A stretch of DNA of 34,674 nt, taken from the sequence record PQ738613; one strand, 5' to 3'. A program made the position numbers and the translations under genes. Below are positions 1 through 34,674 of the stretch, one piece after another; position 1 is the first letter of the stretch, and each line of letters starts with the position of its first letter. This DNA comes from Escherichia phage PhiKM. The notes beneath the pieces were generated by a model. The model was not told the DNA's origin and did no database searches. It saw only the letters and a program-made list of their open reading frames with translations.

Positions 1-2
1 TA

Positions 3-548
3 ATGGCCAGACGCAGCACAATAGAAAAGCTGCCGGAAGACGTGCGCCGCTGGCTTGAACGGGCGCTGACTGAATCCGGCTTCAGCGGGTATAACGAGCT
101 GGAGTCACTGTTGCGTGAGCGGGGGTACGTCATCAGCAAATCCGCTATCCATCGCTATGGACAGAAGATTGAGCGCCGCTATGGTGCTATCCGTGCGGCA
201 ACAGAAGCGGCCCGCATGCTGACCGAAGGCGCAGCAGACGATCAGGATGCGCGTTCGGAGGCTGTGATAGCCCTTATTCAGACCGAGCTGTTCGAGAGTA
301 TTGTCCAGTTGCAGGAGGCGGAAGAAGGCGAAGTCGATCCTAAAGAACGCGTGGCCCTGCTGTCGAAGGTGGCGAAGAATGTGGCTACGCTGTCCCGCGC
401 GTCCGTCAACCTCAAAAAGTTCCAGTCTGAAGTACGGGCCAGAGCGCAGCAGGCAGCCAGCAACGCCGAGAAAATTGCCCGTAAGGGGGGACTGTCAAGC
501 GACGCAGTACAGGCGCTTCGTCGCGAGATTCTGGGGATTGCCACATGA
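3..548 (+). CDS. Mu gp27-like protein (DUF3486-type, putative small terminase/DNA-binding subunit)
   Basis: 181-aa ORF directly upstream of and overlapping (ATGA) the large terminase gene; sequence resembles Mu gp27 family from memory. Window starts with TAATG, suggesting an upstream gene stop overlaps this start. Confidence 0.6.
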   Translation: MARRSTIEKLPEDVRRWLERALTESGFSGYNELESLLRERGYVISKSAIHRYGQKIERRYGAIRAATEAARMLTEGAADDQDARSEAVIALIQTELFESIVQLQEAEEGEVDPKERVALLSKVAKNVATLSRASVNLKKFQSEVRARAQQAASNAEKIARKGGLSSDAVQALRREILGIAT

Positions 549-2140
549 CAAAATCATCCGGAGTGATTTTAAACGCCGCTGGCGGCGGCCCCGAAGGGAT
601 GAGTCCCATGGACGGGAGGAATAACCTTGCTCCCGTTTTGCCTGATACCTCGGCGCTGGATGCCCCTCCCGTTCTGTTGCCTTACCAGCAGCGCTGGGTG
701 GCAGACACCTCTCCGCTTAAGGTGATAGAAAAGAGCCGTCGTACCGGTATTACATGGGCTGAGGCATCCGATAACGTACTGACCGCCGCCTCTTCTGCGC
801 CAGCAGGCGGGATGAATGTGTATTACATCGCTTATAACCAGGACATGACCGTCGAATACATTCAGGCGTGTGCGATGTGGGCACGGGCATTCAACTATGC
901 GGCCAGTGAAATTGAAGAAGGATTCTGGGAAGAGGACGACGACGACAAACACATCAAGACTTACACCATCAAATTTCCTGACTCCGGCTTTCGTATTGTT
1001 GCGCTCTCCAGCCGCCCGTCTAACCTGCGTGGCCGTCAGGGTATTATTGTTATCGACGAAGCGGCGTTCCATGAGCAACTGGACGAACTGCTGAAAGCGG
1101 CGCTGGCGATGCTTATCTGGGGGGGAAAGGTACGCGTTATCTCCACCCATGACGGTGACGACAATCCGTTCAATACGCTTATCGGGGATATCCGTGCCGG
1201 ACGTCAGGGAGGCAGCATACATCGCATCACTTTCCGGGAAGCCGTATCTGAGGGGCTGTTCCGGCGCGTCTGTCTGCGCACCGGGAAGGAATGGTCGGAG
1301 GCATCCGAGCAGGCCTGGATGGCATCGGTGTACAAATTCTACGGTGCCGGCGCATCCGAAGAGCTTGACTGTATTCCGGCCAACGGTGGCGGTGCCTGGC
1401 TGTCCCGTGCCCTGATAGAGTCCCGCATGTCCGCTGATACGCCGGTATTGCGTCTGACCTGCAAGGAAGGTTATGAACTGCTGTCTGATGAGGTTCGCTT
1501 CCGCGAGACGCAGGACTGGCTTGATGAGTATCTGAAACCATTGCTGGAGGCACTCCCCACTGATGCCCGCTCTTTCCTGGGGCGCGACTTTGGCCGTAGC
1601 GGTGATTTGTCGGTGGACTATCCCCTGCTGCAGGAGAAGAACCTGGTACGACGCGTGCCATTCGTACTGGAGCTGCGTAACGTGCCGTTCAGACAGCAGG
1701 AGCAAATCACCTGGTATCTGATGGATGGCCTGCCCGGTCTGCTGGGTGCAGCGTTTGATGCCCGTGGTAATGGTGCCTATCTGGCTGAATACGCCATGCA
1801 GCGCTACGGCTCCGGCCGGGTTCAGCAGGTGATGCCAACCGAAGGCTGGTACCGGGAGCATATGCCTCCGGTCAAAGCTGCACTGGAAGACGGCAACCTG
1901 GTGGACTTACCAAAGGATGAAGACACACTGGATGACCTGCGGGCCGTTCAGGTGGTGAACGGTGTCCCCCGCGTACCGGAGCAACGCTCAAAAGCAAAGG
2001 CTGACGGTGGTAAACGCCACGGGGATTCAGCCATCGCACTGGCGCTGGCGTATTTCGCCAGCCGTGAAATTAACAAAGGGCCGGTGAAGGCAAGCTCACG
2101 CCGTCGTCGTCAGGCGGCCCGTATGCTGGAGGGATTCTGA
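545..2140 (+). CDS. terminase large subunit (Mu gp28-like)
   Basis: 531-aa ORF between gp27-like gene and portal gene, ATG at 545 overlapping previous stop; size and position as in Mu late operon. Confidence 0.75.
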   Translation: MTKSSGVILNAAGGGPEGMSPMDGRNNLAPVLPDTSALDAPPVLLPYQQRWVADTSPLKVIEKSRRTGITWAEASDNVLTAASSAPAGGMNVYYIAYNQDMTVEYIQACAMWARAFNYAASEIEEGFWEEDDDDKHIKTYTIKFPDSGFRIVALSSRPSNLRGRQGIIVIDEAAFHEQLDELLKAALAMLIWGGKVRVISTHDGDDNPFNTLIGDIRAGRQGGSIHRITFREAVSEGLFRRVCLRTGKEWSEASEQAWMASVYKFYGAGASEELDCIPANGGGAWLSRALIESRMSADTPVLRLTCKEGYELLSDEVRFRETQDWLDEYLKPLLEALPTDARSFLGRDFGRSGDLSVDYPLLQEKNLVRRVPFVLELRNVPFRQQEQITWYLMDGLPGLLGAAFDARGNGAYLAEYAMQRYGSGRVQQVMPTEGWYREHMPPVKAALEDGNLVDLPKDEDTLDDLRAVQVVNGVPRVPEQRSKAKADGGKRHGDSAIALALAYFASREINKGPVKASSRRRRQAARMLEGF

Positions 2141-3636
2141 TGGCGAGGGGTATCTGGGTTTCACCCGATGAATTTGTTGCTTTTTCTGAGCCTCAGAAAT
2201 CACTGACCGCGCAGATTGCCTCCCGCAGCCGCGCGATCGACTTTTACGGACTGGGCATGTATCTGCCCAATCCTGATCCCATTCTCAAGGCTCAGGGACG
2301 GGATATCCGTATCTACCGCGAACTGCGCACCGACCCGCTGGTCGGGGGCTGTATCCGCAGACGTAAAGCAGCGCTCAAATCGCTGGAGCGTGGACTGGAG
2401 CGTGGTCACGCCTCTGCCCGGGTCTTCCGTTTCATCCGCGACATGCTCGACGATCTGGATCTGTCCCGCATCATCGGTGAAATGAGCGATGCCGTGCTCT
2501 ACGGGTATCAGCCCTGTGAAATCATGTGGGGCCGTTCGGTCAGGTCGTGGGCGGTGACGGATATTGTCGGCAAACCGCCTGAGTGGTTTCAGTTTGATAC
2601 GGACAACTGCCTGCGCTTTCGGGCGCGTGATGCGGGTGTGGAGGGTGAGCTGCTGTCACCGTCAAAATTCGTGGTGCCGGCACAGGATGCCTCGTATGAC
2701 AATCCTTACGGTTTCCCGGACCTGTCCATGTGCTTCTGGCCGGTCGCCTTCAAGAAAGGCGGGATGAAATTCTGGCTCCGCTTTGCCGAAAAGTTTGGCT
2801 CCCCGTGGGTGATCGGTAAGCACCCGAGGGGCGCAAATGATGCAGAGATTGAAAAACTGCTGGACTCCATGGAGCAGATGGTGGAGGACGCGGTGGCCGC
2901 CATCCCCGATGACAGCAGTATTGAGCTCAGGGCAGCGGATGGCAAGGCAGACAGCAGCGAGGTATTTCGCGAGCTGATCACACTGTCACGCAGTGAGATC
3001 TCCATTGCATTACTCGGTCAGAATCAGACCACGGAAGCGAACAGTAACAAGGCCTCTGCACAGGCCGGGCTGGAGGTAACGGCTGATATCCGCGATGCGG
3101 ATGCGGACATCATTCAGGCGGCAGTGAATCAGGTCATCAGAACGGTGGTCACCCTGAACTTCGGCGATGTGCCGTGTCCGGTCTGGGCCATGTGGGAACA
3201 GGAGGCCATTGATGACACCCGTGCCACCCGCGACGAAAAACTCACCCGGGCGGGTCTGCGTCTGACCCCGCAGTACTTCAAGCGTGAGTACCAACTGCAG
3301 GACGGCGATATTGACGAGACACCACCGTCGGAACGCCAGAATAACATGCTGCCGCTGTCATTTGCCGAGGCGATTGATGCTGATATTCAGGCTCAGCAGC
3401 AGCTTGACGACGCGCTGGACATTCTGATGAACGGAGGCGCGTTAAATGGCACGCTGGAACCCGTCCTGGCACCTCTGTTCAGGCGGGTCGAAAACGGGGT
3501 TAACCCGTCTGAGCTGCTGGGCGAACTGGCGGAGCTCTACCCTCAGATGAACACGGACGATCTGCAGGAGCGGCTGGCCCGCATTCTCTTTGTGGCAAAT
3601 ATCCGGGGACGTCTGCATGAGCGTGACAACGGCTGA
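2140..3636 (+). CDS. portal protein (Mu gp29-like, DUF935 family)
   Basis: 498-aa ORF, start overlaps terminase stop; position and size typical of Mu-like portal. Confidence 0.8.
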   Translation: MARGIWVSPDEFVAFSEPQKSLTAQIASRSRAIDFYGLGMYLPNPDPILKAQGRDIRIYRELRTDPLVGGCIRRRKAALKSLERGLERGHASARVFRFIRDMLDDLDLSRIIGEMSDAVLYGYQPCEIMWGRSVRSWAVTDIVGKPPEWFQFDTDNCLRFRARDAGVEGELLSPSKFVVPAQDASYDNPYGFPDLSMCFWPVAFKKGGMKFWLRFAEKFGSPWVIGKHPRGANDAEIEKLLDSMEQMVEDAVAAIPDDSSIELRAADGKADSSEVFRELITLSRSEISIALLGQNQTTEANSNKASAQAGLEVTADIRDADADIIQAAVNQVIRTVVTLNFGDVPCPVWAMWEQEAIDDTRATRDEKLTRAGLRLTPQYFKREYQLQDGDIDETPPSERQNNMLPLSFAEAIDADIQAQQQLDDALDILMNGGALNGTLEPVLAPLFRRVENGVNPSELLGELAELYPQMNTDDLQERLARILFVANIRGRLHERDNG

Positions 3637-4438
3637 ACTGGCGTACTGCATGACGCTTCCCCCGAAGCGGGCAATCAACTACCTGAAGTCCAAAGGATAT
3701 CAGATTACCTGGGACTGGGAAGAAATGTGGCAGGAGGCCCATGCCCGCGCCTTTACCGTTGCTAAAGTGACCCGCCTGGATATCCTGGAAGATATTCGCG
3801 GGGCACTGCAGCAGGCTGTCGATGAAGGAAAAACCGATCGCTGGTTCCGGCAGGAGCTGGAGCCGGTGCTGAAGCGTAAGGGATGGTGGGGACCACGTGA
3901 CACGACTGACCCGGTAACGGGTGAGCCGGTCACCATTCAGCAGGGCAGTCCGTGGCGGCTCGATACCATCTTTCGCACCAATATGTCCGTACTCTACAGC
4001 GCCGGTCGTTGGGCGGAACAGATGGAAAACGTCGACGACAGGCCGTACTGGATGTATACCGGCATCAACGACAGCCATACCCGCAGGAGCCATCTGGCGC
4101 TGCATGGTCTGGTGCTGCGCTGGGATGACCCGTTCTGGCAGGCATTTTACCCGCCGAACGGCTGGCGCTGCCGCTGTAGTGTTATTGCCCTGAGTGCGGC
4201 GGATGTACGTGCCCGTGGCCTGAAGGTTATCAGCTCCGGCTCTGCCATGGGCCAGGAACTGAAACTGGTCTCAGAGAAAACCGGCGAAATGCGGAACGTG
4301 GCCACCTTTAATACCGGCACCACGAAGGTGACCACCGACGTCGGCTGGTCTTATGCTCCGGGGGCAGCATACCGTCCCGACCTGGCCCGCTATCAGGGTA
4401 CGCTTCAGCCACTGGCACAACAGGAACTGAGAGGATAA
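3617..4438 (+). CDS. head morphogenesis protein (Mu F-like, gp30)
   Basis: ORF in track starts 3590; ATG at 3617 (MSVTTAEL...) overlaps portal stop at 3634-3636 and is the more plausible start. Follows portal as in Mu. Confidence 0.7.
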   Translation: MSVTTAELAYCMTLPPKRAINYLKSKGYQITWDWEEMWQEAHARAFTVAKVTRLDILEDIRGALQQAVDEGKTDRWFRQELEPVLKRKGWWGPRDTTDPVTGEPVTIQQGSPWRLDTIFRTNMSVLYSAGRWAEQMENVDDRPYWMYTGINDSHTRRSHLALHGLVLRWDDPFWQAFYPPNGWRCRCSVIALSAADVRARGLKVISSGSAMGQELKLVSEKTGEMRNVATFNTGTTKVTTDVGWSYAPGAAYRPDLARYQGTLQPLAQQELRG

Positions 4439-4440
4439 CA

Positions 4441-4899
4441 ATGGCTTCCGATAACCTGGTCAGTATCACCATTAACGATAAGTCCCTGCGCCGGAGCCTC
4501 CGTGCGCTGGATCTTGCTGCCACAGACCTGGAGCCCGCGATGCGCAAAATCGCCGGAACCCTGCTGGCGGAAACACAGTTTAACTTTCTTGATGAGGGGC
4601 GTCCGGGGTGGATGCCCTCGCTGGCAGCGGAAGAACGTGACGGGCAGACACTGCAGGATACCGGGCGTCTGATGGGGTCAGTATCAACCGACCATGACGA
4701 CCGGCAGGCTGTTGTGGGGACCAACGTTGTTTACGGTGCCATTCACCAGTTCGGGGGTAAAACGGGGCGTAATGAGTCTGTTGAACTTCCGGCCCGCCCG
4801 TTCCTGCCGGTGACGGGGGATGGAGAACTACAGCCTGAAGTGGTAATCCCCATCCTCGATACCATTGTCCGCCATCTTGAATCAGCGGCCCGTCGCTGA
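4441..4899 (+). CDS. virion morphogenesis protein (Mu G-like, gp31)
   Basis: 152-aa ORF, ATG at 4441 preceded by GAGAGGA; position after F-like gene. Confidence 0.7.
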   Translation: MASDNLVSITINDKSLRRSLRALDLAATDLEPAMRKIAGTLLAETQFNFLDEGRPGWMPSLAAEERDGQTLQDTGRLMGSVSTDHDDRQAVVGTNVVYGAIHQFGGKTGRNESVELPARPFLPVTGDGELQPEVVIPILDTIVRHLESAARR

Positions 4900-4943
4900 G
4901 TTTTCTCTCTTCAGGCGGGTGATTTATCATTGCCAGCGAATGA

Positions 4944-4990
4944 GGGGCTGTATTACCTTTATAAAGGCTTTACAGCCTCTGTTTTATAAC
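4944..4990 (+). terminator. nested palindrome/hairpin followed by T-rich tract downstream of G-like gene
   Basis: GGCTGTA (4946-4952) pairs with TACAGCC (4971-4977); an internal 12-bp perfect palindrome CCTTTATAAAGG (4956-4967); followed by CTCTGTTTTAT. Confidence 0.4.
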
Positions 4991-5113
4991 CGCCTCCGGT
5001 TCACCGCATTGCTTTCCCTGTCCTTCTCCCCTGATGTTTTCTAAAGCAGATTAAAATCGCCGGGCCTGCATTTCTCACAAACTGTCTCCGACAACATAAC
5101 GCGGGACAGCAAA

Positions 5114-6229
5114 ATGTCAGCCATTCACATTTTTAAAGCCGGTACTCATACCGATATGCACGGCAAAAAACTGCCGTTCACGCCAGACGATCTTGCCGCC
5201 TGCGTGAAAGCCTATGACCCGTCCGTCCATGAAGCACCACTCGTGATTGGTCATCCCAGAACGGAAGACCCGGCGTGGGGCTGGGTGAAAGCCCTGTCGC
5301 TCAGCGGCGTCGATCTGATGGCAGAGCCTGCCCAGCTGGACCCGCAGTTTGCTGAGATGGTCACCGACGGACGATTCAAAAAAGTGTCCGCCTCTTTCTA
5401 CCTCCCGGATTCACCGTCCAATCCGAAGCCCGGCGTGCTCTACCTTCGCCATGTGGGCTTTCTCGGGGCACAGCCACCTTCCGTCAAGGGGCTGAAACAG
5501 GTGTCCTTCAGTGAGCAGGAAGAAGGTGTGGTGGAGTTCGCCGACTGGCAGGCCATCACGAATGCCTCCCTGTGGGGAAAGCTGCGCGATTTTCTGATCG
5601 CCCGCTTCAGTCTGGACGAGGCAGAAAAAGTCCTGCCGGAATGGCAGCTCAACAGTCTGCGCGAAGAGGCGTACCGCGACACACTGTCGCAGGATGCAGC
5701 AGGTGCACAATTCAGTGAGACAGGCCCGGGGCCGTCTTCCGCAAGTAACGAGGAATCATCGATGACAAAAGAAGAGATTGAAGCCCTTCAGGAGGAGAAC
5801 CGCCGCCTGAAGCAGCAGGCTGCTGATCGCGATGCGCGTGATGCACAGGTCAGACAGGAGCAACTGCATAAGGACAATGTGGCCTTTGCAGAAAAACTGG
5901 TCGCAGAGGGCCGTCTGGCTCCCCGCGCCTCCTCCGTGGTGGTTGCCCTGCTGGATGCCGTCGCCGGTGGCGACAAGCCGGTGGAGTTTGCTGAGGGGGA
6001 AAGCCGCACACCGCTGGCCACCGCCTTTCGTTCATTGCTCTCCGACGGGGAGCCGGTGATGAATTTCGCCGAACAGGCCACAAAAGAGCGTGTCGGCGAC
6101 ACGGTGAAGGTGGATGTGGCAGAGTTTGCGGAAGCCGATCCTGAGCGTCTGGCCCTGCATCAGAAAGCAGTGGCCCTGTCCAAAAAAGAAGGCATCAGCT
6201 ATGAGGCTGCTGTCGCACGCTGCCTGTAA
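5114..6229 (+). CDS. head maturation protease / scaffold (Mu I-like, gp32)
   Basis: 371-aa ORF upstream of major capsid gene; acidic coiled-coil C-terminal half typical of scaffold; Mu-like position. Confidence 0.75.
   Translation: MSAIHIFKAGTHTDMHGKKLPFTPDDLAACVKAYDPSVHEAPLVIGHPRTEDPAWGWVKALSLSGVDLMAEPAQLDPQFAEMVTDGRFKKVSASFYLPDSPSNPKPGVLYLRHVGFLGAQPPSVKGLKQVSFSEQEEGVVEFADWQAITNASLWGKLRDFLIARFSLDEAEKVLPEWQLNSLREEAYRDTLSQDAAGAQFSETGPGPSSASNEESSMTKEEIEALQEENRRLKQQAADRDARDAQVRQEQLHKDNVAFAEKLVAEGRLAPRASSVVVALLDAVAGGDKPVEFAEGESRTPLATAFRSLLSDGEPVMNFAEQATKERVGDTVKVDVAEFAEADPERLALHQKAVALSKKEGISYEAAVARCL
5762..6229 (+). CDS. candidate nested scaffold protein (Mu Z-like), in-frame internal start within I-like gene
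   Basis: In-frame ATG at 5762 preceded by GAGGA with 7-nt spacer (aacGAGGAatcatcgATG); downstream product is the coiled-coil, acidic C-terminal 155 aa. Confidence 0.4.
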   Translation: MTKEEIEALQEENRRLKQQAADRDARDAQVRQEQLHKDNVAFAEKLVAEGRLAPRASSVVVALLDAVAGGDKPVEFAEGESRTPLATAFRSLLSDGEPVMNFAEQATKERVGDTVKVDVAEFAEADPERLALHQKAVALSKKEGISYEAAVARCL

Positions 6230-6243
6230 TTTAAGGAGAGAGC

Positions 6244-7197
6244 ATGTCTGATTACTTAAAAGGTAAACGTGTCGTTGATCCGGTACTGACCAGTATCGCC
6301 CGTGGCTATAAAAATGCCGCATTCATCGGCGAACGTATTTTCCCCGTCGTGCTGACGGACAAGGAAGGCGTGCGTGTACCGACCTTCGGGAAAACCGCCT
6401 TTGTGGAATATGACACCGAGCGTGCCGTCGGGGCGGACAGCAATGTTCTGGTCCGTGAAAAAACAGGCACGCTGGACCTGGTGCTGGGTGAACACGATCT
6501 GGCTGCGCCGGTGGACTATCGCGAGCAGGCGGAGTCCATGTTTAACGAAGAGAGCAAGGCCATCCGTCGCGCCACGAATGGCGTGAACCTGCGCCGTGAA
6601 CTTATCGCTGCCCGTCTGGCTCAGGATGAAAAGGTCTACCGTACCGGGCACGTCAAAAAACTGACAGCCAGTGATCGCTGGGCCGGTGGTAAGGGGGACC
6701 CCATCGGGGTGATTGAAGCCGGTATGGAAGCGGTCCGTACGGCCACGGGGCTGCGTCCTAACCTGATGACCATGGGGGCCGGCGTGATGGCGCTGCTGAA
6801 GTTCCACCCGGCGATTCAGGCCGCCATCGGAGCCAACGAACGCAAGCGCATCACCACAGAAATCCTGCAGGACCTCTTTCAGATCGAAGAGATCGTCATC
6901 GGTGCCCCAGTCTCCCTGCCGTCCATGAAAGCGGCAATGGATAAGAACAGCGTGCCGGCGGATATCTGGGGAGACAATCTGATGCTGCACTATGTCGGCA
7001 AACCGCAGCCGGGGGCGGACAGCGCGGACGAGAACGAGCCGTCCTTCGGCTACACCCTGCGTCGTAAGGGGATGCCTGTTGCCGACAAATACGACGGAGC
7101 CGGTGGCAAGGTGAAGTACTGCCGTTATACCGATATCTACAAAGTCGCCGTGGTTGGTGGCGATGCCGGGTATCTCATTACCGGTATCAGTAAATAA
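6244..7197 (+). CDS. major capsid protein (Mu T-like, gp34)
   Basis: 317-aa ORF with strong SD TAAGGAGAG before ATG 6244; position after protease/scaffold; sequence resembles Mu T family. Confidence 0.8.
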   Translation: MSDYLKGKRVVDPVLTSIARGYKNAAFIGERIFPVVLTDKEGVRVPTFGKTAFVEYDTERAVGADSNVLVREKTGTLDLVLGEHDLAAPVDYREQAESMFNEESKAIRRATNGVNLRRELIAARLAQDEKVYRTGHVKKLTASDRWAGGKGDPIGVIEAGMEAVRTATGLRPNLMTMGAGVMALLKFHPAIQAAIGANERKRITTEILQDLFQIEEIVIGAPVSLPSMKAAMDKNSVPADIWGDNLMLHYVGKPQPGADSADENEPSFGYTLRRKGMPVADKYDGAGGKVKYCRYTDIYKVAVVGGDAGYLITGISK

Positions 7198-27528: not shown

Positions 27529-27543
27529 AGCTTGTCTTCCCTG

Positions 27544-27861
27544 TTATCCGATTCTGGCGGCAATTTTTCTGGCGAGGTCGCACAGTGTTTCGCCATCGCA
27601 GGTTTTCACCACGGTATTTACCGGTTGCGGTGCAACTACCGGGCGTAATGCTGACTGATTCTGCAGACGTCTTATCTGCTGCATCAGCATCACCTCCATC
27701 GTCAGTACAAACGGGTGCGTCTCCTGTGCGGGTACGCAGATTTCACCGGAAGGGGTCACCACGCGGAAACCCTGCACCATCTCCGGCAGCAGATTACACA
27801 GTGCGTGCCCCAGTGCCTCCGGGCTGTCCATCAGGGTATTTTGTGTGTTATTCGTATTCAT
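27544..27861 (-). CDS. hypothetical protein
   Basis: 105-aa ORF, SD GGAGG; TAATG overlap with upstream gene. Confidence 0.45.
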   Translation of the reverse strand: MNTNNTQNTLMDSPEALGHALCNLLPEMVQGFRVVTPSGEICVPAQETHPFVLTMEVMLMQQIRRLQNQSALRPVVAPQPVNTVVKTCDGETLCDLARKIAARIG

Positions 27862-28781
27862 TACTGCATATCCTCCGGTCGGTTGATTTCAGGTTCCGGT
27901 TCGGTCAGCCAGGCGGGGGCATCGTTACCCGATGGAGCGGCCTCAAGGTCAAACGTCTCACGTAATGCATGAACACTGCGTTCAATCTGGCAGACCAGAC
28001 CGGCCATGAAATCTCTGGGGGTATCGATCATGTTTTTGGTGCAGTATTCACACAGGGTCTCAAAAACACTGGACAGCCGGACGGCGATAGCCGATTCGGC
28101 CTCAACCGCTAATGCCGTCACTTCCGCCCGCAATTTTTTCAGTTCTTCGTCTGGCGGCGGAGGTTGCAGGCGCGATTTCTTCTCCAGTTTTGTGGCCAGT
28201 TCGTTGATTTTTTCGTCCTTTCCGGCAAGCACCTGTTGCTGAGCTGCGTTGGTTTCGCGCGCTTCACGCAGGGCGGCCTTCAGTTCGCGGCTGGTCATGC
28301 GATCAATATCATCAAGCGTTGCACCGGCGACGGTTCCACCATCAGCTAATGCGTCGAGTTCTTCGTCATCCAGAACCATCAGTTCATATAACTTGGTTTT
28401 TCCCAAAACGCTCAGCGCTGAGCGTTTTGGCTGTTCATCTCCATTGCCGAGAAATTTCACGCTGGCCTGCATCATGCGACGAGCTACCTGTGGTGCTAAT
28501 CCGAGGTCGTTTTCCAGAATATTTGTGAAATCACCATGCGGTTCATTTTCTTTTAAGATGATCAGCCGCTTACCCGCTTCCAACATAGATTCAGCACTCT
28601 GCGCCATATAAAAACGTGCTTCGTGAACGATGCGTTCACGTTCATAAGGCAGTCCATCACCAAACTGCTGCATGATCTCCATGCGATGCTGTGTCATGGC
28701 ATTCAGGCTGACGTTGAGATCATCCGACAGCGGTACATCGGCGTTCAGTTCAGTGTTAATCGGTGATTTGGTACGTCCCAT
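27861..28781 (-). CDS. hypothetical protein (coiled-coil, acidic; DUF3102-like?)
   Basis: 306-aa ORF with strong SD AAGGAG 6 nt upstream of ATG 28781. Confidence 0.5.
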   Translation of the reverse strand: MGRTKSPINTELNADVPLSDDLNVSLNAMTQHRMEIMQQFGDGLPYERERIVHEARFYMAQSAESMLEAGKRLIILKENEPHGDFTNILENDLGLAPQVARRMMQASVKFLGNGDEQPKRSALSVLGKTKLYELMVLDDEELDALADGGTVAGATLDDIDRMTSRELKAALREARETNAAQQQVLAGKDEKINELATKLEKKSRLQPPPPDEELKKLRAEVTALAVEAESAIAVRLSSVFETLCEYCTKNMIDTPRDFMAGLVCQIERSVHALRETFDLEAAPSGNDAPAWLTEPEPEINRPEDMQ

Positions 28782-28791
28782 TGATTACTCC

Positions 28792-29100
28792 TTACAAACG
28801 ACTACCTGAAATGACACGTTGGTTAATTTCGTTAATACGATCCTGTGCACGTGCCATCTCGTTACTGTGGGCCATGGCGATCTGCAGTAACTGGATGCCC
28901 GGTGCAAAACGTCCGTTCTCCAGTTTCAGAGCCAGCCCTTCTTCAATGAGGGTGTTGAGTGCCCGGTTGATGTTTGCCGGTGACTCGTGCAGTGCTGTCG
29001 CCAGTTCACCGTTAGAAATACCGTTCAGGGCATGACCGCGCAGCGCTTTGAGTACCCGGAGGATGCGACTGCCGGAGCTTGAAACATTCGTCTTACTCAT
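28792..29100 (-). CDS. small winged-helix/HTH protein (IclR-like N-terminal domain only)
   Basis: Pattern ILRVLKAL...GISNGELATALHESPANINRALNTLIEEGL resembles IclR-type HTH; start at 29100 (SD AGAGG) preferred over 29106. Confidence 0.45.
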   Translation of the reverse strand: MSKTNVSSSGSRILRVLKALRGHALNGISNGELATALHESPANINRALNTLIEEGLALKLENGRFAPGIQLLQIAMAHSNEMARAQDRINEINQRVISGSRL

Positions 29101-29152
29101 CTGCATACCTCTTTTGCGATATGTGATAACCTTTTACAAAGACTCAAAATAT

Positions 29153-29341
29153 TTAGGCCGCCTGAGCTGTTGATTTCAGTCCCAACTTCACGGCGATTTC
29201 ATGGGATTTACCGTAACGGGCTTTGGTCTGCCCGTTGAGAACGCGGTATACCTCATTGCGGTTGTAGCCGTTTTCTTCTGCCCAGCGGGTGAAAGTGATC
29301 CCGCGCTGGCGGAAGAGAGCTTTGACTTGTTCTGCAGTCAT
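29153..29341 (-). CDS. Ner/Cro-like small DNA-binding protein (first gene of early operon)
   Basis: 62-aa ORF with SD AAGGAG 6 nt upstream; divergent from repressor across a 93-bp palindrome-containing region. Confidence 0.6.
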   Translation of the reverse strand: MTAEQVKALFRQRGITFTRWAEENGYNRNEVYRVLNGQTKARYGKSHEIAVKLGLKSTAQAA

Positions 29342-29393
29342 CGTTGTCTCCTTTGTTGATGCAATGATGTTTGCCTTATATGTGTTAGATTAT

Positions 29394-29411
29394 TGCTCAT
29401 AATTATGAGCA
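29394..29411. promoter_or_regulatory. 18-bp perfect palindrome TGCTCATAATTATGAGCA, candidate operator
   Basis: Directly read; half-site TTATGAGCA recurs at 29433-29441 overlapping the repressor start codon (29435). Confidence 0.5.
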
Positions 29412-29434
29412 TATCAAGATAGAGATTCACTTTT

Positions 29435-29791
29435 ATGAGCAAAGATATAGGAGAGCGCGTTATTTCTGTGAGGAAGAAAGCAGGGTTGAACCAGAGAGAA
29501 TTTGCAGCTCGTTTAGGTATTTCTAATGGTGGTATCAGTCAGATTGAAAATGGAAAGGCGATGCCTGGAGGGGAGTTTCTGTTAAAGATGCATCAAGAGT
29601 TTAATGTTGATGTAAATTGGTTGCTCACTGGAATGAGCACAGATGGTATGACTAGAAACCAGAATCAAATTTCCCCAGAAAAACAAAAACTAATAGATAC
29701 TTTTGACGACATGACACCAGACCAACAACGCTCATTTCTTGAGATTGGGCGATTCTATACTCAGCCAAAACCAGGAAAAATCGCAGGCTGA
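29435..29791 (+). CDS. XRE-family HTH repressor (Mu c functional analogue)
   Basis: 118-aa ORF; N-terminal Cro/C1-type HTH (LNQREFAARLGISNGGISQIENGK); divergent from early operon. Confidence 0.7.
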   Translation: MSKDIGERVISVRKKAGLNQREFAARLGISNGGISQIENGKAMPGGEFLLKMHQEFNVDVNWLLTGMSTDGMTRNQNQISPEKQKLIDTFDDMTPDQQRSFLEIGRFYTQPKPGKIAG

Positions 29792-29877
29792 TACTGACCC
29801 GGACACAAAGGACAGGTGGTTGATCTGGATGCTTTCAGAAAACATCGCCAGTGACATAGTGGAAGTTGTTTGGTTTA

Positions 29878-29908
29878 CCGGAAAGCATTGTGCTTTCCGG
29901 TTTTGTTT
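29878..29908 (+). terminator. rho-independent terminator between convergent repressor and methyltransferase genes
   Basis: CCGGAAAGCA (29878-29887) ttg TGCTTTCCGG (29891-29900) followed by TTTTGTTT. Confidence 0.55.
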
Positions 29909-30672
29909 CAGAAGTTGCAGATTAGCAGTTCACGGCGCGGCGTGGGTTTACCCGCCAGACTGTAGTTGATATTCACTGTCTGTATGTTCAGTCCAGTGAA
30001 CACCTCGCGCATCTGCGGGATGTCGTTCACCGAAATTATCATTTTTCCTCTGATGCACCGGGCCAGCTCTGCCAGCCGCGAGTAGTTCCCTTCAGGAAAA
30101 TCCACACCATAGCCTTCCGTACCCAGGTACGGTGGGTCGCAGTAGAACAGCGTGTGCGGACGATCATAACGCTCAATGCACTGTTGCCAGTCCATGTGTT
30201 CTATGACTGTTCTGGAAAGCCGCAGGTGTGCCGCTGACAGTTCTTCTTCAATACGTAGCAGGTTGAAGCGTGGCGGGGATGTGGTGGAGGTACCGAAGCT
30301 GTGCTCTGCCACCTTGCCGCCAAACGCCTGCTTCTGAAGGTAGTAGAACCGTGCCGCACGCTGGATATCCGTCAGTGTTTCTTCCGGGGTGATCTGCAGC
30401 CATTTGTAGATCTGACGGCTGACCAGCGCCCATTTGAACTGGCGGACAAATTCTTCCAGGTGATGCTTTACCACCCGGTACAGATTCACCAGTTCACCGT
30501 TGATATCATTGATGACTTCGATCTTGCCGGGTGTCTTAAGAAAATAGAGCGCTGCTGCCCCACAAAACGGCTCCACATAACATTCATGCGCCGGAAACAG
30601 CGGCAGAATGTGTTTTGCAAGGCGGCGTTTGCCACCAATCCACGGCACGATGGGTAATGTCTGCATTTTCAT
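29908..30672 (-). CDS. DNA adenine methyltransferase (Dam / D12-class N6-adenine MTase family)
   Basis: DPPY motif (FYCDPPYLGTEGYG), N-terminal PIVPWIGGKRRL and EPFCGAAALYF motifs; start at 30672 (MKMQTLP) preferred; track ORF extends to 30762 through palindromic non-coding-looking DNA. Confidence 0.85.
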   Translation of the reverse strand: MKMQTLPIVPWIGGKRRLAKHILPLFPAHECYVEPFCGAAALYFLKTPGKIEVINDINGELVNLYRVVKHHLEEFVRQFKWALVSRQIYKWLQITPEETLTDIQRAARFYYLQKQAFGGKVAEHSFGTSTTSPPRFNLLRIEEELSAAHLRLSRTVIEHMDWQQCIERYDRPHTLFYCDPPYLGTEGYGVDFPEGNYSRLAELARCIRGKMIISVNDIPQMREVFTGLNIQTVNINYSLAGKPTPRRELLICNF

Positions 30673-30720
30673 AATCTGCAAGCCTTTTACAATTATTAAA
30701 AAATATGGCAGTCTGGTCAG

Positions 30721-30732
30721 GTCTCGCGAGAC
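30721..30732. promoter_or_regulatory. 12-bp perfect palindrome GTCTCGCGAGAC about 50 bp upstream of methyltransferase start
   Basis: Directly read. Confidence 0.35.
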
Positions 30733-30776
30733 TGACTGAACCTTGGTCGGCTCACAGCGCATTCCTGTGGGGCGAT

Positions 30777-30815
30777 GACCAGCCCGGCTTTCGGGTGCCG
30801 GGCTGGTCGTTCTTT
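30777..30815. terminator. GC-rich hairpin, 11-bp stem
   Basis: GACCAGCCCGG (30777-30787) ctttcgggtg CCGGGCTGGTC (30798-30808) followed on + strand by GTTCTTTC. Confidence 0.4.
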
Positions 30816-30862
30816 CATGATGCGGCAGGGATGGCGGGATTTCTGTTAATGTGGTTTAGGGA

Positions 30863-31078
30863 TTATCCGGGGCGATTTTCTGACCTTATCCGGTCCAGGG
30901 CATAAGTAATACCTTCTGCAAAAACAGAAGTATCAAACTGCTTTTGTATTCCCTGAAAATGAAAAGCGGCACGACAGACACTCAGTTCTCCGCGGTATAA
31001 CCGGATAATATCTTCCAGAACATTGTTCACTGCTTCAGCACGGCGCTGATGTTCTGTTAACGTTAATCGGGGATTCAT
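30863..31078 (-). CDS. hypothetical 71-aa protein
   Basis: Strong SD AAGGAG 6 nt upstream of ATG 31078; alpha-helical-looking product; no recognisable family. Confidence 0.5.
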   Translation of the reverse strand: MNPRLTLTEHQRRAEAVNNVLEDIIRLYRGELSVCRAAFHFQGIQKQFDTSVFAEGITYALDRIRSENRPG

Positions 31079-31079
31079 G

Positions 31080-31481
31080 ATGCACTCCTTAAATGATGAT
31101 TTTTATGTACTCACCGGCAAAATATTCTGCCGATTACTGAACACGCATCCGGCACCTCAGGTTTTGATTTATTCTGGTTTTTTCGATATCCCGGACCAGG
31201 TTGATCACGACCAGAAAAAGTGCCGGTGTTTTATTGATACGCTGATATGGCTTCGGGATAACAGCTATATTCGTTACTCTCAGTTGCTGGCTGTGGGAGC
31301 GGCTGATGTCGTCCTCACGGAAAAAACGCTCTGTCTGCTCAATGCCATGCCGACCTTTCTGCAGCCCCGGCCCGTACCATTTAAAGAGTCACTTCTGGAT
31401 GCAGTAAAAACCGGTGAAAATGCAGTCATCGCTGAATGCGTATCCCGGATTATGCGTTACGTGTTTAATGAACGTAAGTGA
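31080..31481 (+). CDS. hypothetical 133-aa protein (uncertain; fills gap between two minus-strand genes)
   Basis: ORF 31077..31481 with ATG 31080 preceded by GGGGA (6-nt spacer); overlaps the divergent start of the 71-aa gene and the 3-prime end of the NTPase gene. Confidence 0.3.
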   Translation: MHSLNDDFYVLTGKIFCRLLNTHPAPQVLIYSGFFDIPDQVDHDQKKCRCFIDTLIWLRDNSYIRYSQLLAVGAADVVLTEKTLCLLNAMPTFLQPRPVPFKESLLDAVKTGENAVIAECVSRIMRYVFNERK

Positions 31482-32185
31482 GGTTTATCCGCTGTCTGCA
31501 TAATCCCGATAGCCAGTGCGAGGGGAAGTAATTCCGGGGAAACTCTTTCAAACAGCGATGCCCATTCTCCTCTCGCCATCACTCTGTCCAGCCCGCCCTC
31601 CAGTTGCATTTCAGCAATCTTCCTGATTTCCCGGAACAACGCCGCTTTGATCTCTTCATGCTCAGCTTTATTTTCCGGTGTCAGAAGGTATTCGTCGAAG
31701 AACCGGGGAGGCTGGTTAATCGGGATGTGTTCCTGTTTGCCGTACTTCGGGGACGAACAACATTCTGTTGACTGACCAGTGAGTTTACGTAACTCCTTCA
31801 TGAGCAGCTCCTGATCGTAAACTGTCATCAGTGCCGCAATGGTGGCATGCAGTGCATCGGGCAGTATCCAGGGTTGCCGGCCCGTGGGGCATATAACATC
31901 CAGCAGCTCATTCGTCCGACAGATACGCTCCTCGCCGTATGACAACAGGCCCTGTCCCGTGTATTCCTCCAGCCTGATCACTGTGCCAGCCCGTGGTTTC
32001 TGCCATGTGCTCAGATCATCCCCACTCATACGGCGCTCACCGTCCACGTCTGCGGCGTCGACAATGACGCTGTTTCCGAATTCCTGTTTCACCACTTCCT
32101 CTATTCGCGCCAGTACGTAACTTTTACCGCTGCCCACAGGACCGGACACGGTGACAGTGATGACCGGATTCAGTGTCTGCGTCAT
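31457..32185 (-). CDS. P-loop NTPase-domain protein of unknown function
   Basis: 242-aa ORF with SD GAGGAG 8 nt upstream; Walker A GPVGSGKS near N-terminus; C-terminal 140 aa without recognisable family. Confidence 0.6.
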   Translation of the reverse strand: MTQTLNPVITVTVSGPVGSGKSYVLARIEEVVKQEFGNSVIVDAADVDGERRMSGDDLSTWQKPRAGTVIRLEEYTGQGLLSYGEERICRTNELLDVICPTGRQPWILPDALHATIAALMTVYDQELLMKELRKLTGQSTECCSSPKYGKQEHIPINQPPRFFDEYLLTPENKAEHEEIKAALFREIRKIAEMQLEGGLDRVMARGEWASLFERVSPELLPLALAIGIMQTADKPHLRSLNT

Positions 32186-32315
32186 ATCGTATTCTCCTCT
32201 GTGAATAATTCATCGTTTATCCTGCACATCCCGTATCCCCGGCTCTCTTAACGCGCTTTAAAATCCTTCGCGCCCTGTATTTGTGATGCTGTCTCCACCA
32301 GATAAGGAGACACAC

Positions 32316-32666
32316 ATGAAAAACCTGAAAAAATTCATTCCCCCTGTTAAAAAACCTCGCCTCAGCGGCTGGCTGCTGACCTCAGTGCTGTTGCTGGGCA
32401 CCATCGCTCTGGTCTCACCACAGCAGCTGCCTGTTGTGATCTACAAGCTGGCACTCATCACGCTGGCAGCAGTGCTGGGTTACTGGCTTGACCGTTCGCT
32501 CTTCCCCAAAGCCCGTCCCGGTCAGTACCTGAAACATGACGACAGGCTGATGGCTGAAGGGCGTTTCCCGGTACAGACCGGCCTTCACCTGGTGTTTTCT
32601 GCTGCGTTAATCCGCCGTGCACTGATTGTTGCAGCGGTCTGCCTGGCTGTTGCGATGGGGCTTTAA
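32316..32666 (+). CDS. holin-like membrane protein (three predicted TM helices)
   Basis: ATG 32316 with strong SD AAGGAG (6-nt spacer); three hydrophobic segments; immediately upstream of endolysin gene. Confidence 0.45.
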   Translation: MKNLKKFIPPVKKPRLSGWLLTSVLLLGTIALVSPQQLPVVIYKLALITLAAVLGYWLDRSLFPKARPGQYLKHDDRLMAEGRFPVQTGLHLVFSAALIRRALIVAAVCLAVAMGL

Positions 32667-32668
32667 TC

Positions 32669-33409
32669 ATGAACTGGCCGCAGATCACCTGGATTGTATG
32701 CATGTCCCTGAAACTGGCTTTCGAAGCCTTTCGGGTCTTCATCAGAACCGAACGCCTGTCAGTCCGCGCCGGGACCTTTCTGGTTCATATGGCATGGGTA
32801 TTCTTTGTCGCAATGTTGCTCTGGTGTGGCGGCTTTTTCAGCCAGGCATGCGCAGCACAACCTCCGCAGGCTGCGCTGCAGTATCGCGATGATGTGATCC
32901 GTAATGCCCGGCTTGAATGGGGACTGTCTGCGCCGGTGGCCGATTTCGCCGCGCAACTGCATCAGGAAAGCGGCTGGCGACCTGATGCGATCTCGCCGGC
33001 TGGCGCTCAGGGACTGGCGCAGTTCATGCCTGCCACTGCCGACTGGATAAGCCAGTTGATACCGATGCTGAGCAGTCGTGAGCCGTTTAATCCGGCATGG
33101 GCTATCCGGGCGCTGGTCAGCTATGACCGCTGGCTGTGGCAGCGTGTCAGCGCCGCCAGTGACTGCGAGCGTATGGCCATGACACTGTCGGGCTATAACG
33201 GTGGTCTGGGCTGGGTACAACGGGACAGGCGGCTTGCATCACAGAAAGGTCTGGACAGCACCCGCTGGTTCGGACATGTCGCCACGGTGAATGCCGGACG
33301 CAATGCGGCCAGCTGGCGGGAGAACCGCCATTATCCGCAGCGCATCCTGCGCGAACTGGCACCGCGATATCTCACATGGGGAGGCAGCAGTTGTGTGGCA
33401 TCTGGTTAA
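32669..33409 (+). CDS. endolysin, soluble lytic transglycosylase (SLT) domain with N-terminal hydrophobic segment
   Basis: SLT catalytic motif region HQESGW...AGAQGLAQFMPAT; N-terminal stretch MAWVFFVAMLLWCGGFFSQACAAQ is hydrophobic (signal peptide or signal-anchor-release type). Confidence 0.8.
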   Translation: MNWPQITWIVCMSLKLAFEAFRVFIRTERLSVRAGTFLVHMAWVFFVAMLLWCGGFFSQACAAQPPQAALQYRDDVIRNARLEWGLSAPVADFAAQLHQESGWRPDAISPAGAQGLAQFMPATADWISQLIPMLSSREPFNPAWAIRALVSYDRWLWQRVSAASDCERMAMTLSGYNGGLGWVQRDRRLASQKGLDSTRWFGHVATVNAGRNAASWRENRHYPQRILRELAPRYLTWGGSSCVASG

Positions 33410-34043
33410 AAAGCTGCCGTGGCGCGGCATTCTGCTGGCCATTCTTATCAATGCCTTTCTGGTCGGCCTGTATGCCATGGGATACAGAAGTGGTCATGAC
33501 TCTGCAAAGCGTGACGGTGATACCGCGCTAAGTCAGTTGCAGTCAGCATTTGACGCGTACAAAACGGAGCAGGCAACGCTTGAGAATGCTGCGCTGCGGG
33601 CCTGGGCCAGACGGTATCAGGAGCAGGTGGCCGCCGGGCAGCGGGCTGAAGCCGGTTATCTTGAGCAGATTGCTCAACTGGAGAGCCGGAACAAACAACT
33701 ACAGGGGCAAATTAACGATGTCACACAGCGCTGGATTGATGAAAAAGGTAAGAGTCATCCCATTGAGTGCGTGTTTACTCGCGGTTTCGTGCGCCAGTAC
33801 AACGCCGCACTCGGATATGACAACGCATCCGTCGACACCGGTCATTCAGACTCAGTTGCCGCCACTGGCACCCGCTCTGGCACAGCGACCGGGCAACCTG
33901 AAACCACTGACACCCGGTTACGCGATTCGGGTGTCTCCCAGCGTGACGTTCTCGCCAACATCATCGACAACGCATGGCAATGTCGTCGCTGGCGGAACCA
34001 GATAAACGCGCTGCTGGATGAACGGGAAGGATTACAGAAATGA
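33393..34043 (+). CDS. i-spanin (Rz-like)
   Basis: GTG 33393 with SD GGGGAGG 8 nt upstream, overlapping endolysin 3-prime end; N-terminal TM helix then coiled-coil periplasmic domain. Confidence 0.6.
   Translation: MWHLVKKLPWRGILLAILINAFLVGLYAMGYRSGHDSAKRDGDTALSQLQSAFDAYKTEQATLENAALRAWARRYQEQVAAGQRAEAGYLEQIAQLESRNKQLQGQINDVTQRWIDEKGKSHPIECVFTRGFVRQYNAALGYDNASVDTGHSDSVAATGTRSGTATGQPETTDTRLRDSGVSQRDVLANIIDNAWQCRRWRNQINALLDEREGLQK
33739..34005 (+). CDS. o-spanin (Rz1-like lipoprotein) embedded in +1 frame within Rz
   Basis: ATG 33739; product MKKVRVIPLSACLLAVSC... has a signal peptide with a Cys at a lipobox-like position and a Pro-rich mature region (LPPLAPALAQRPGNLKPLTPGY). Confidence 0.5.
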   Translation: MKKVRVIPLSACLLAVSCASTTPHSDMTTHPSTPVIQTQLPPLAPALAQRPGNLKPLTPGYAIRVSPSVTFSPTSSTTHGNVVAGGTR

Positions 34044-34366
34044 CACTGCAGGTTGAATTCTGGACGGTGGTGAGTTTTCTGCTCACCTTCATGAGGTTTG
34101 TGGGAGGGCTCGCCAAATGGTTGTTCAGTAAAACAGAAGAACGCCAGGCGGCACGATTCGCCTCCCTTGAACAGGCCCTGCAACAATCCGCCTCCAACTG
34201 GGGCGAGCTGGAAAAAGAATTTATGCGATTTAAAGCGGATTTACCGCTGAATTATGTCCGTCGAGAGGATTATATCCGTGGCCAGACAGTCATTGAGGCC
34301 AAACTGGACGCGCTTTATAACAAACTGGAAGTGGTACAGCAGTACCGCAATACCGGAGGTCAATAA
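34040..34366 (+). CDS. small membrane protein (Mu gp25-position; candidate releasin/lysis accessory)
   Basis: 108-aa ORF, SD GGAAGGA, ATGA overlap with Rz stop; N-terminal TM helix followed by helical domain. Confidence 0.45.
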   Translation: MTLQVEFWTVVSFLLTFMRFVGGLAKWLFSKTEERQAARFASLEQALQQSASNWGELEKEFMRFKADLPLNYVRREDYIRGQTVIEAKLDALYNKLEVVQQYRNTGGQ

Positions 34367-34674
34367 TGGTCGATATTACCCGGGTACGCCGCGAATCCCT
34401 GCGCTGGAGTCTGCTGGTTGCCCTGAACAAGACCCGCCCTTACACCGCCAGCGAGACGCTGCTGCTGGATGTGTCCCGTGCCATCTACCCGGACACCACA
34501 CCGCTGGAACTGCGCCGCGAACTGGATTATCTGGCTGACCGTAAAATGGTTGAGCTGGAGAAAAAACCTTCTGGCGACTGGTTTGCTGACCTGACCCGCC
34601 TCGGCGTAGACCTGGTGGAATACACCGTGGAATGTGGTCCGGGTATTGCCCGCCCGGAAAAGTACTGGAGTGAA
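34367..34674 (+). CDS. hypothetical phage protein (Mu gp26 position), 3-prime partial at window end
   Basis: ATG 34367 with SD GGAGG, TAATG overlap; ORF runs off the window; would naturally precede the gp27-like gene at window start. Confidence 0.5.

Follow-up and report, generated by a model that had tools for sequence, protein, structure and literature searches.

The window, by which we mean the whole stretch of 34,674 nucleotides analysed here, consists of phage DNA, a run of N and a short piece of plasmid DNA (Table 1). Our intact reference was the 37,045-bp prophage at 1002301-1039345 of NZ_CP023844.1, which lies between aroA and ycaL in an ST131-type E. coli. Window positions 1-13434 and 20577-34674 (27.5 kb) are 100.000% identical to this prophage, and positions 13535-20233 (6.7 kb) are 99.925% identical. 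Gene content and gene order agree between the two, down to the TAATG at the gp26-like/gp27-like boundary. The reference prophage is complete, with both ends, invertible tail-fibre cassettes, an invertase, a 983-aa tape measure and chromosomal flanks. The window, in contrast, has a plasmid flank, an N gap and a flipped cassette region, and it lacks the invertase-side end together with about 2.6 kb that carry the invertible tail-fibre cassettes and the invertase. In the left arm, Pfam and PHROG matches define a leftward early operon (Mor, gp16/GemA, Gam, an ExeA-like AAA ATPase, an rve transposase and DUF3102), a repressor/Dam region and rightward lysis genes (holin, SLT, Rz-like spanin, gp25-like and gp26-like). 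Within the tape-measure gene, the 100 N stand for 186 bp of the intact prophage, and the gene therefore looks frameshifted. Tandem Repeats Finder returned nothing around this gap, the duplication being masked by the Ns. The gap had been missed in the first-pass annotation.

Table 1. Segments, junctions and selected features of the window
Feature	Position	Strand	Description
Late operon, continued	1-13434	+	gp26-like TAA (1-3), gp27/TerS-like (3-548), TerL-like, portal (DUF935), head/tail genes, N-terminal part of the tape measure
100-N run	13435-13534	none	Scaffold gap within a 261-bp tandem duplication of the tape-measure gene
Second contig	13535-20233	+	Remaining tape measure, baseplate genes, constant part of the tail fibre, first 133 bp of the invertible C-terminal cassette
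Chimeric tail-fibre ORF	19287-20246	+	Spurious; residues 1-315 from the phage, codon 316 straddling J1
J1	20233/20234		Tail-fibre repeat abutting the plasmid fragment; read as the two ends of a linear scaffold, head to tail
Plasmid fragment	20234-20576	-	343-bp part of a permease gene from an IncF-plasmid ABC transporter (FtsX-like); 840 E. coli plasmid records match at 100% identity
J2	20576/20577		Plasmid DNA meets the terminal TG of the phage, base-precise; inside a contig
Phage left arm	20577-34674	both	14,098 bases, 100.000% identical to NZ_CP023844.1; starts at the Mor-side end 5'-TGATTAGACTTGAGATAAATGAC
Terminal repeat region	20577-20640	+	Repeated GAGATAAATG / GAGATATTTATGG motifs; resembles both BcepMu termini (direct comparison)
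gp26-like ORF	34366-34674	+	phrog_436; 57% identical to BcepMu gp26; completed by the TAA at window 1-3

Continuity of the window ends and relation to known phages

The late genes run across the two ends of the window. When the last 300 and the first 300 bases are joined, they give an exact 600-base match inside the RefSeq-annotated prophage of E. coli 4/1-1 (NZ_CP023844.1). The first-pass annotation had described the window as a permuted view in which the 3' end continues at the 5' end, and this match bears it out; the continuity is real and far above chance. The wrap 34674|1 shows neither a gap nor a terminal overlap, and both outer ends lie in unique sequence. The gp26-like frame stays open for 103 codons up to the last base. 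Its ATG overlaps the TAA of the preceding gene as TAATG, and the TAA that closes it overlaps in turn the ATG of the gp27-like gene at position 3. A partial gp26-like gene had indeed been annotated at the 3' end, with a start at 34367 that has to be moved to 34366. Completion of this ORF by the first bases of the window, proposed at the time as a check, is seen in the intact prophage of E. coli 4/1-1, where a 312-nt gp26-like CDS adjoins a DUF3486/gp27-like CDS with the same TAATG overlap. Together with the Pfam match of the gp27/TerS-like protein (Phage_Mu_Gp27, E=1.3e-56), this overlap confirms both the stop-start arrangement and the gp27-like start that had been read there. The gene names likewise fit the BcepMu numbering (SLT endolysin, Rz-like spanin, gp25-like, gp26-like, gp27/TerS).

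Rotated to 20577, the window is collinear, with matching strands, with BcepMu 368-33077 (tblastx). It shows the BcepMu-type layout, namely a leftward early operon whose last genes, gp16/Mor, lie at the left terminus, a central repressor region and a rightward lysis-head-tail operon. The divergent early-leftward and late-rightward organisation had previously been attributed to BcepMu rather than to Mu, rightly so in view of this collinearity. BcepMu (AY539836, genus Bcepmuvirus) and phiE255 share with the window phage Mor/gp16 on the minus strand at the left end, the order holin, SLT, Rz/Rz1, gp25, gp26, gp27 TerS, TerL and then P2-like tail genes, termini of the same form as far as the one end in the window shows, and a transposase that is 68-69% identical (67.8% to BcepMu gp09 over 98% of the protein, 68.7% to phiE255). 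Matches to Pfam rve and to the adjacent AAA_22 (ExeA-like AAA ATPase) are present in the window. The window phage differs from BcepMu by its enterobacterial host, by a protein identity of about 30-80%, by the presence of a Dam methylase and by its right end, where the phage has invertible tail-fibre cassettes and a serine invertase instead of the acyltransferase of BcepMu. The BcepMu record is linear from end to end.

Two further records are informative. The closest one in the phage database, Klebsiella phage KP12 clone KP12_2 (OM835952), shows about 86% DNA identity over 75% of a 25-kb query (window 1-25000) and has the same BcepMu-type layout. Unlike the window, it is a linear contig, which begins some 56 bp inside the invertase-side end, stops about 50 bp short of the Mor-side end and contains neither host DNA nor a closure. 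The second, NZ_CP132021.1 (E. coli JCH8249 'plasmid unnamed', 40,540 bp, labelled circular), is a BcepMu-type prophage with contiguous chromosomal flanks, the early region of which is about 79% identical to the window. Its sole non-native join is the closure, which lies exactly at the record origin and not inside the sequence as in the window. Moreover, it holds a complete phage with both ends, the 6-bp duplication TTCACC in yahI, and 2.2 and 2.8 kb of chromosomal flanks.

In Mu, the early genes are transcribed rightward from the repressor end and insertion generates 5-bp duplications, whereas in the window phage the early operon has the opposite orientation and reaches the end of the genome, and the duplications are of 6 bp. 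The layout proper to Mu (rightward ner, A and B from the repressor end, with a MuA-type transposase) is absent from the window, and Mu is also absent from the 68 phage records matched by the transposase, which are BcepMu- and B3-type phages. The window phage resembles Escherichia phage Mu in being transposable, in its TG...CA ends, in a Mor/C-type late activation, in homologues of the gp27/gp28/gp29 head genes, in an invertible segment of the tail fibre served by a Gin-type invertase, and presumably also in packaging with host flanks (PMC5977238). In transposable phages of this type the ends are fixed, and the packaged DNA is linear, with heterogeneous host sequence at its ends (PMC5977238); as a consequence, natural circular permutation is not expected.

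The phage terminus, the plasmid fragment and the tail-fibre join

Dozens of independent insertions define position 20577 as the true transposon end on the Mor side (5'-TGATTAG...). In about 45 IMG/VR loci, ...TCTAATCA is the last phage sequence before host DNA, which differs between loci; over 30 distinct host flanks adjoin the shared terminal ...AATCA. Target duplications of 6 bp were found at three independent sites: GAAGAA between aroA and ycaL, GTAAAT in a DUF2207 gene and TTCACC in yahI. The left terminus at 20577 resembles the BcepMu termini, and the right terminus, absent from the window, is present in otherwise identical prophages. The repeated GAGATAAATG / GAGATATTTATGG motifs of the terminal region are likely transposase-binding sites, judging from their sequence. 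In biological terms, the phage is a linear-ended transposon; its insertion duplicates 6 bp of the target, and its replication is by transposition.

The 343 bp upstream of this end are host DNA flanking the phage and are not part of it. They map to positions 3995-4337 of the NZ_CP023827.1 locus, in a plasmid gene that is almost invariant. An exact-sequence look-up of the chimeric permease fragment found none on record. J2 has the form of a genuine transposition junction. Phage DNA actually stops at 20233 and restarts at 20577, with plasmid DNA in between, which replaces the boundaries of 20246 and about 20600 drawn in the first-pass annotation.

J1 is of a different form. There is no microhomology, phage and plasmid sharing no base on either side, and neither a TG/CA end nor a shared 2-bp core is found. 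The ORF that spans it takes the rest of codon 316, residues 317-319 and the stop from the plasmid, and it is shorter than the tail-fibre profiles and than the 526-aa protein of a relative. An exact-sequence look-up of the chimeric protein, with two start choices, found none on record. Neither the J1 sequence nor the J2 site has a match in IMG/VR, JGI metagenomes, GTDB genomes, the 5,426 complete E. coli genomes or the 72,556 plasmids of PLSDB. All five mismatches of the second contig to NZ_CP023844.1 fall at 20108-20156, and all match the other copy of the inverted repeat; this SNP pattern places the real serine-invertase crossover at about 20101-20107, some 130 bp upstream of J1. Three explanations were considered and rejected. 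An inverted repeat ending at 20233 does not account for the lost similarity, as both copies of the repeat run past this position. Invertase-mediated recombination with a plasmid pseudo-site would call for the 2-bp core of a 26-bp site, which is not shared at J1, and the crossover lies too far upstream, by some 130 bp. Finally, use of a pseudo-end by the transposase finds neither TG/CA nor a binding-site motif there. No other Mu-like contig of IMG/VR runs from the Mor end back into phage DNA; one IMG/VR contig carries the tail-fibre repeat of another prophage in its Mor-end flank.

The terminus of a de Bruijn contig has a signature of its own: the terminal k-mer occurs in two genomic copies and the (k+1)-mer is unique. 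It was computed for k=77 on two closely related intact prophages in place of the source genome: for each of 13434, 13535 and 20233, the terminal 77-mer has two copies there and the 78-mer a single one. Positions of the right-end type are rare, four in 37,045 bp, as are those of the left-end type (four, hence eight in total), and the probability that J1 would land on such a position by chance is p ~1e-4. Positions 13434, 13535 and 20233 are k=77 contig ends. The two edges of the N gap serve as internal positive controls for the signature. As the phage side of J1 is a k=77 contig terminus in the same way as both gap edges, J1 is a scaffold end and not a junction made in vivo. More generally, such a k-mer test is a cheap and read-free way to spot scaffold ends hidden in rotated sequences, provided that an intact relative is at hand. 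On the plasmid side, a repeat boundary or allelic variation at 20234 was sought as an explanation for the other end of the scaffold, and none was found in the sequences compared here; the stop 343 bp into plasmid DNA could stem from a dead-end in coverage, from trimming or from a feature of the source genome.

Origin of the circular arrangement

We consider it highly probable that a draft short-read scaffold of a BcepMu-type prophage common in E. coli ST131 was circularised, then re-cut at gp26/gp27, and in this way became the window. The linear scaffold would start at window 20234, with the 343 bp of IncF-plasmid DNA outside the Mor-side end, and would pass through the early, lysis and head/tail genes up to a contig break in the tape-measure tandem repeat (13434). 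The 100 N would bridge this break, the scaffold resuming at 13535 and ending at 20233, within the inverted repeat that belongs to the invertible tail-fibre cassettes. Head-to-tail closure of this scaffold would create the join 20233|20234, and re-cutting of the closed scaffold elsewhere, at the gp26/gp27 TerS boundary, would leave a window whose 3' end continues at its 5' end. We infer that reads did not make this closure and that it arose in software or in the handling of the record, through a circular flag with rotation or through wrapping of the window. The assembler was probably of the k=77 de Bruijn type such as SPAdes, whose default values of k include 77. The linear records of BcepMu and KP12_2, together with the precedent for a false closure in NZ_CP132021.1, count in favour of an artificial closure. 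The first-pass annotation had offered either a circular or concatenated assembly or two tandem prophage copies. A permuted view of a circularised assembly stands; the tandem copies did not hold up. Nor did the circle as a phage genome, because its closure passes through 343 bp of IncF-plasmid DNA and skips about 2.6 kb of the phage, including one transposon end. The wrap-around gene order therefore reflects the handling of the sequence, and the phage genome itself is neither circular nor permuted.

Another possibility is that the assembler closed the cycle through chimeric reads, a ligation artefact of the library, in which case J1 would be supported by reads and yet artificial. A blunt junction without homology is typical of ligation chimeras, and the 343-bp flank may be close to the size of a library fragment. 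However, such a junction would fall at an arbitrary base and not exactly on the last base of the first shared 77-mer, and assemblers usually discard isolated links of low coverage. We regard this origin as improbable.

That the 34.7-kb circle or tandem is itself real is formally possible, at a very low probability. The first form that it could take, two tandem prophage copies in vivo, seems to us more doubtful still than the chimeric reads. A truncated copy and a 343-bp plasmid remnant would be followed by a second copy, possibly after a phage-mediated chromosome-plasmid cointegrate and a deletion, and the short-read graph would then contain a cycle of 34,674 bp. The topology fits, the step back from the tail fibre to a point lying 343 bp upstream of the left end resembles a duplication junction, J2 shows that the phage adjoined plasmid DNA, and replicative transposition does make cointegrates (PMC10052514; also general knowledge of Mu). 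Against this, the breakpoint on the phage side lies exactly on one of the four k=77 right-end boundaries in 37 kb, which a break in vivo has no reason to do, and J1 lacks any microhomology. In addition, neither junction occurs in the complete E. coli genomes or plasmids searched, and it would be a further coincidence for the window to span exactly one repeat period.

The second form, a covalently closed circle of phage and host DNA like the heterogeneous circular (Hc) DNA that arises in Mu by intramolecular replicative transposition, appears slightly less credible again. Circles with a Mu copy joined to host DNA have been documented during Mu growth (PMC10052514), and the window does hold phage DNA with a short host segment at a precise phage end. 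Yet a circle made by transposition needs both phage ends, and here the invertase-side end is missing with its 2.6 kb; the join lies within the tail-fibre gene and has no TG/CA terminus, and the k=77 signature counts against this origin as well. A molecule with one end could, moreover, neither transpose nor replicate. As for a circularly permuted, terminally redundant genome packaged by the headful mechanism and assembling as a circle, which has in its favour the wrap-around gene order alone, it is practically negligible: a fixed phage end (20577) and host DNA within the closure refute it, as this closure contains plasmid DNA and leaves out about 2.6 kb of phage genes, and the 6-bp target duplications at many insertion sites, the rve transposase and AAA ATPase homologous to those of BcepMu, and the linear records of the relatives all speak against it.

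For a scaffold closed artificially, as we propose, the consequences are mainly practical. The closure introduces a false junction and a spurious chimeric tail-fibre ORF, and it makes an incomplete genome look complete, although this genome is without its receptor-binding cassettes, its invertase and one transposon end. A Mu-like contig flagged as circular or 'complete' should not be taken at face value, because the ends of transposable phages are fixed and bordered by host DNA. The sole biological by-product concerns J2. Our judgement is evenly balanced as to whether J2 is genuine, that is, whether in the source sample a conjugative IncF plasmid had received the BcepMu-type phage by transposition into its ABC-permease gene. 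If so, J2 would be evidence that a prophage common in ST131 is mobile and able to insert into an IncF plasmid, and a transposable phage would ride on, and could spread by, a conjugative resistance/virulence plasmid. The reciprocal junction expected for a prophage truly resident in the plasmid is ...GCATTTATCGCGCGGCGCATCA joined to AAAAATTCGCGCCGAAGG, with the 6-bp duplication AAAAAT.

Continuity of the window ends and gene layout

The window ends in ...TACTGGAGTGAA and starts with TAATGGCC. When these ends are joined, the TAA at positions 1-3 stops the gp26-like ORF and overlaps the ATG at position 3. The last 300 and first 300 bases, so joined, gave an exact 600-base match inside a RefSeq-annotated prophage, that of E. 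coli 4/1-1 (NZ_CP023844.1, 37,045 bp), where a 312-nt CDS adjoins a DUF3486 CDS through an identical TAATG overlap. Comparison of the ends revealed zero terminal overlap and zero bases missing across 34674/1. The first-pass annotation had proposed that the gene order of the 3' end continues at the 5' end; the exact match and the completed ORF confirm this and rule out chance. The gp26-like ORF does run off the window end as claimed there, with its start corrected from 34367 to 34366.

The gene names and the BcepMu-type, rather than Mu-type, layout were also correctly assigned, because tblastx aligns the window, with 20577 taken as its first base, to BcepMu 368-33077 in the same order and orientation, the transposase (rve, Pfam) is 67.8% identical to BcepMu gp09, and PHROG and Pfam matches back the holin, SLT, Rz-like spanin, gp25-like and gp26-like proteins. 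In the BcepMu feature table, the left end carries Mor and gp16 on the minus strand; transposase and central repressor come next, followed by holin, SLT, Rz/Rz1, gp25, gp26, gp27 TerS and TerL. Both ends of the intact prophage resemble both BcepMu termini. The TerL-like ORF has a weak Pfam Terminase_6N match (E=5.8e-4, under the curated cut-off), and its RefSeq version is a shorter 513-aa "hypothetical protein" that leaves a 50-bp gap.

Features of the window and insertions of the phage group
Feature	Record	Position	Details
Phage_Mu_Gp27-domain protein	window	3-548	full-length domain, E=1.3e-56 (Pfam)
TerL-like ORF	window	545-2140	531 aa; ATG overlaps gp27-like stop
Run of exactly 100 N	window	13435-13534	inside tape-measure gene
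Truncated tail-fibre ORF	window	19287-20246	few plasmid-encoded residues at tip
ABC-transporter (FtsX-like) permease gene fragment	window	20234-20576	343 bases; 100% identical to gene in 840 E. coli plasmid records
gp26-like ORF	window	34366-34674 (last base)	103 codons in frame; ATG overlaps TAA of preceding ORF
Insertion	NZ_CP023844.1	between aroA and ycaL	6-bp target duplication GAAGAA
Insertion	NZ_CM137002.1	splits DUF2207 gene	6-bp target duplication GTAAAT
Insertion of relative (prophage)	NZ_CP132021.1	2222-37731, in yahI	6-bp target duplication TTCACC

Origin of the join at 20233/20234

The permutation is very probably an artefact of closing and re-cutting a linear draft scaffold. The window is 100.000% identical to the NZ_CP023844.1 prophage over 1-13434 and 20577-34674 and 99.925% identical over 13535-20233, where phage identity ends. 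Absent from the window are the next ~2.6 kb of the intact prophage, comprising alternative tail-fibre C-terminal cassettes and assembly genes, the serine invertase and the second transposon end. The tail-fibre ORF is therefore truncated and chimeric, with plasmid DNA following; tail-fibre profiles match it to residue 316 only and extend 130-150 positions further. At the join there is zero microhomology; it lacks both a TG/CA terminus and a shared 2-bp core, and is thus neither a transposase product (ruled out by the absent terminus) nor an invertase product (ruled out by the absent core). It was unmatched in IMG/VR, JGI metagenomes, GTDB genomes, complete E. coli genomes and PLSDB, and exact-sequence searches for the chimeric proteins (tail fibre and permease fragment) found none on record.

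The decisive test was k-mer counting on two intact prophages. The 77-mers ending at 13434, starting at 13535 and ending at 20233 each occur exactly twice, and the matching 78-mers once each, which is the contig-terminus signature of a k=77 de Bruijn graph; the edges of the N gap, contig termini by definition, served as positive controls. In the whole 37,045-bp prophage this property is confined to four right-end-type and four left-end-type positions, so that a biological breakpoint would fall on one with a probability of about 1e-4. The 100-N run shows that the source of the window is a scaffold built from two or more contigs. These N stand in for 186 bp within a tandem duplication of 261 bp, whose copies are ~94% identical; hence the apparent split and frameshift of the tape-measure gene into ORFs 11521-13542 and 13760-14386, as against a single 983-aa protein in the NZ_CP023844.1-type prophage.

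In the simplest reading, a linear scaffold would have run from 20234 round to 20233, been handled as a circle, so that its two ends were abutted, and then been re-cut at the gp26/gp27 boundary. Unlike the join at 20233, the window's own ends sit in unique sequence, and the cut, at most 2 bases from a gene boundary, looks deliberate or like the work of a gene-aware windowing step.

Tandem prophage copies, the second alternative of the first-pass annotation, are topologically compatible and might be produced when a phage-mediated cointegrate undergoes a deletion, but their breakpoint would have to fall on the k=77 boundary, and this coincidence, at a chance of about 1e-4, tells against them. The same coincidence weighs on a real phage-plus-host circle, conceivable because Mu is known to yield circles of this kind (Hc-DNA; PMC10052514) and equally compatible in topology; such a circle also requires both phage ends, which are not both present. 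Had the closure come from chimeric reads, the junction would not sit precisely where the shared 77-mer ends. The fixed end, the target duplications, the plasmid DNA within the closure and the absence of phage genes exclude a headful genome with circular permutation. Packaged DNA of transposable phages is linear and carries host sequence at its flanks (PMC5977238).

Insertion into plasmid and chromosomal DNA

The prophage is a transposable phage, real but already known: hundreds of E. coli genome annotations include it. Its ends read 5'-TGATTAGACTTGAGATAAATGAC (Mor side) and 5'-TGATGCGCCGCGCGATAAATGCAC (invertase side), and ~45 IMG/VR loci share the terminal ...TCTAATCA before unrelated host DNA. 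The target duplication is 6 bp in this group, against 5 bp in Mu; more than 30 flanks display no obvious target consensus.

The phage restarts at 20577, exactly its Mor-side terminus. As this junction lies inside a contig and joins an IncF-plasmid ABC-permease gene base-precisely to the phage left end, it is probably a real transposition into an IncF plasmid, be it as a resident plasmid-borne prophage or as packaged flank DNA, with a predicted duplication of AAAAAT. The junction 20576/20577 was unmatched in IMG/VR, JGI metagenomes, GTDB, 5,426 complete E. coli genomes and 72,556 plasmids. No repeat or allelic variation in the sequences compared explains the scaffold end at 20234, 343 bp into the plasmid gene; trimming is possible, or a coverage dead-end, for instance where host DNA was packaged alongside virion DNA.

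A public precedent for a linear prophage with host flanks labelled circular is NZ_CP132021.1 (E. coli JCH8249), a 40,540-bp RefSeq "circular plasmid unnamed" made of a complete BcepMu-type prophage and contiguous chromosomal flanks of 2,221 and 2,809 bp (yahJ-yahI and yahI-yahG-fdrA). Its sole non-chromosomal join coincides exactly with the record origin, which makes a mislabelled linear contig the probable explanation. Properly linear comparators are BcepMu and Klebsiella phage KP12 clone KP12_2 (OM835952.1), which stops ~50 bp before each phage end. Although the latter is filed under Vequintavirinae, its contig is a transposable prophage of BcepMu type, which was probably induced from the host and sequenced along with the lytic phage; its annotation names a Dam methylase "methyl-directed repair" and leaves an ExeA-like ATPase hypothetical. 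Two PLSDB records labelled plasmids, CP088398.1 (377 kb) and CP054248.1 (542 kb), carry a 100%-identical prophage adjoining chromosomal ycaL and look like chromosome fragments.

The invertible tail-fibre system

An invertible tail-fibre system of several cassettes, with a serine invertase, maps to window 20087-20233 and NZ_CP023844.1 locus 1016-3065; NZ_CM137002.1 has three repeat copies. All five mismatches to NZ_CP023844.1 lie at 20108-20156 and each equals the other inverted-repeat copy; the cassette segment is therefore flipped in the source relative to that record, and the invertase-proximal repeat copy is fused to the tail-fibre constant part. The SNP pattern places the crossover at about 20101-20107, which adjoins a gix-like half-site, GGTTTGGGGGAA. 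The constant part also contains internal direct repeats (19492-19939, period ~168 bp, 82-85% identical) whose number varies between strains, an extra unit in NZ_CM137002.1 giving a complete fibre of 526 aa.
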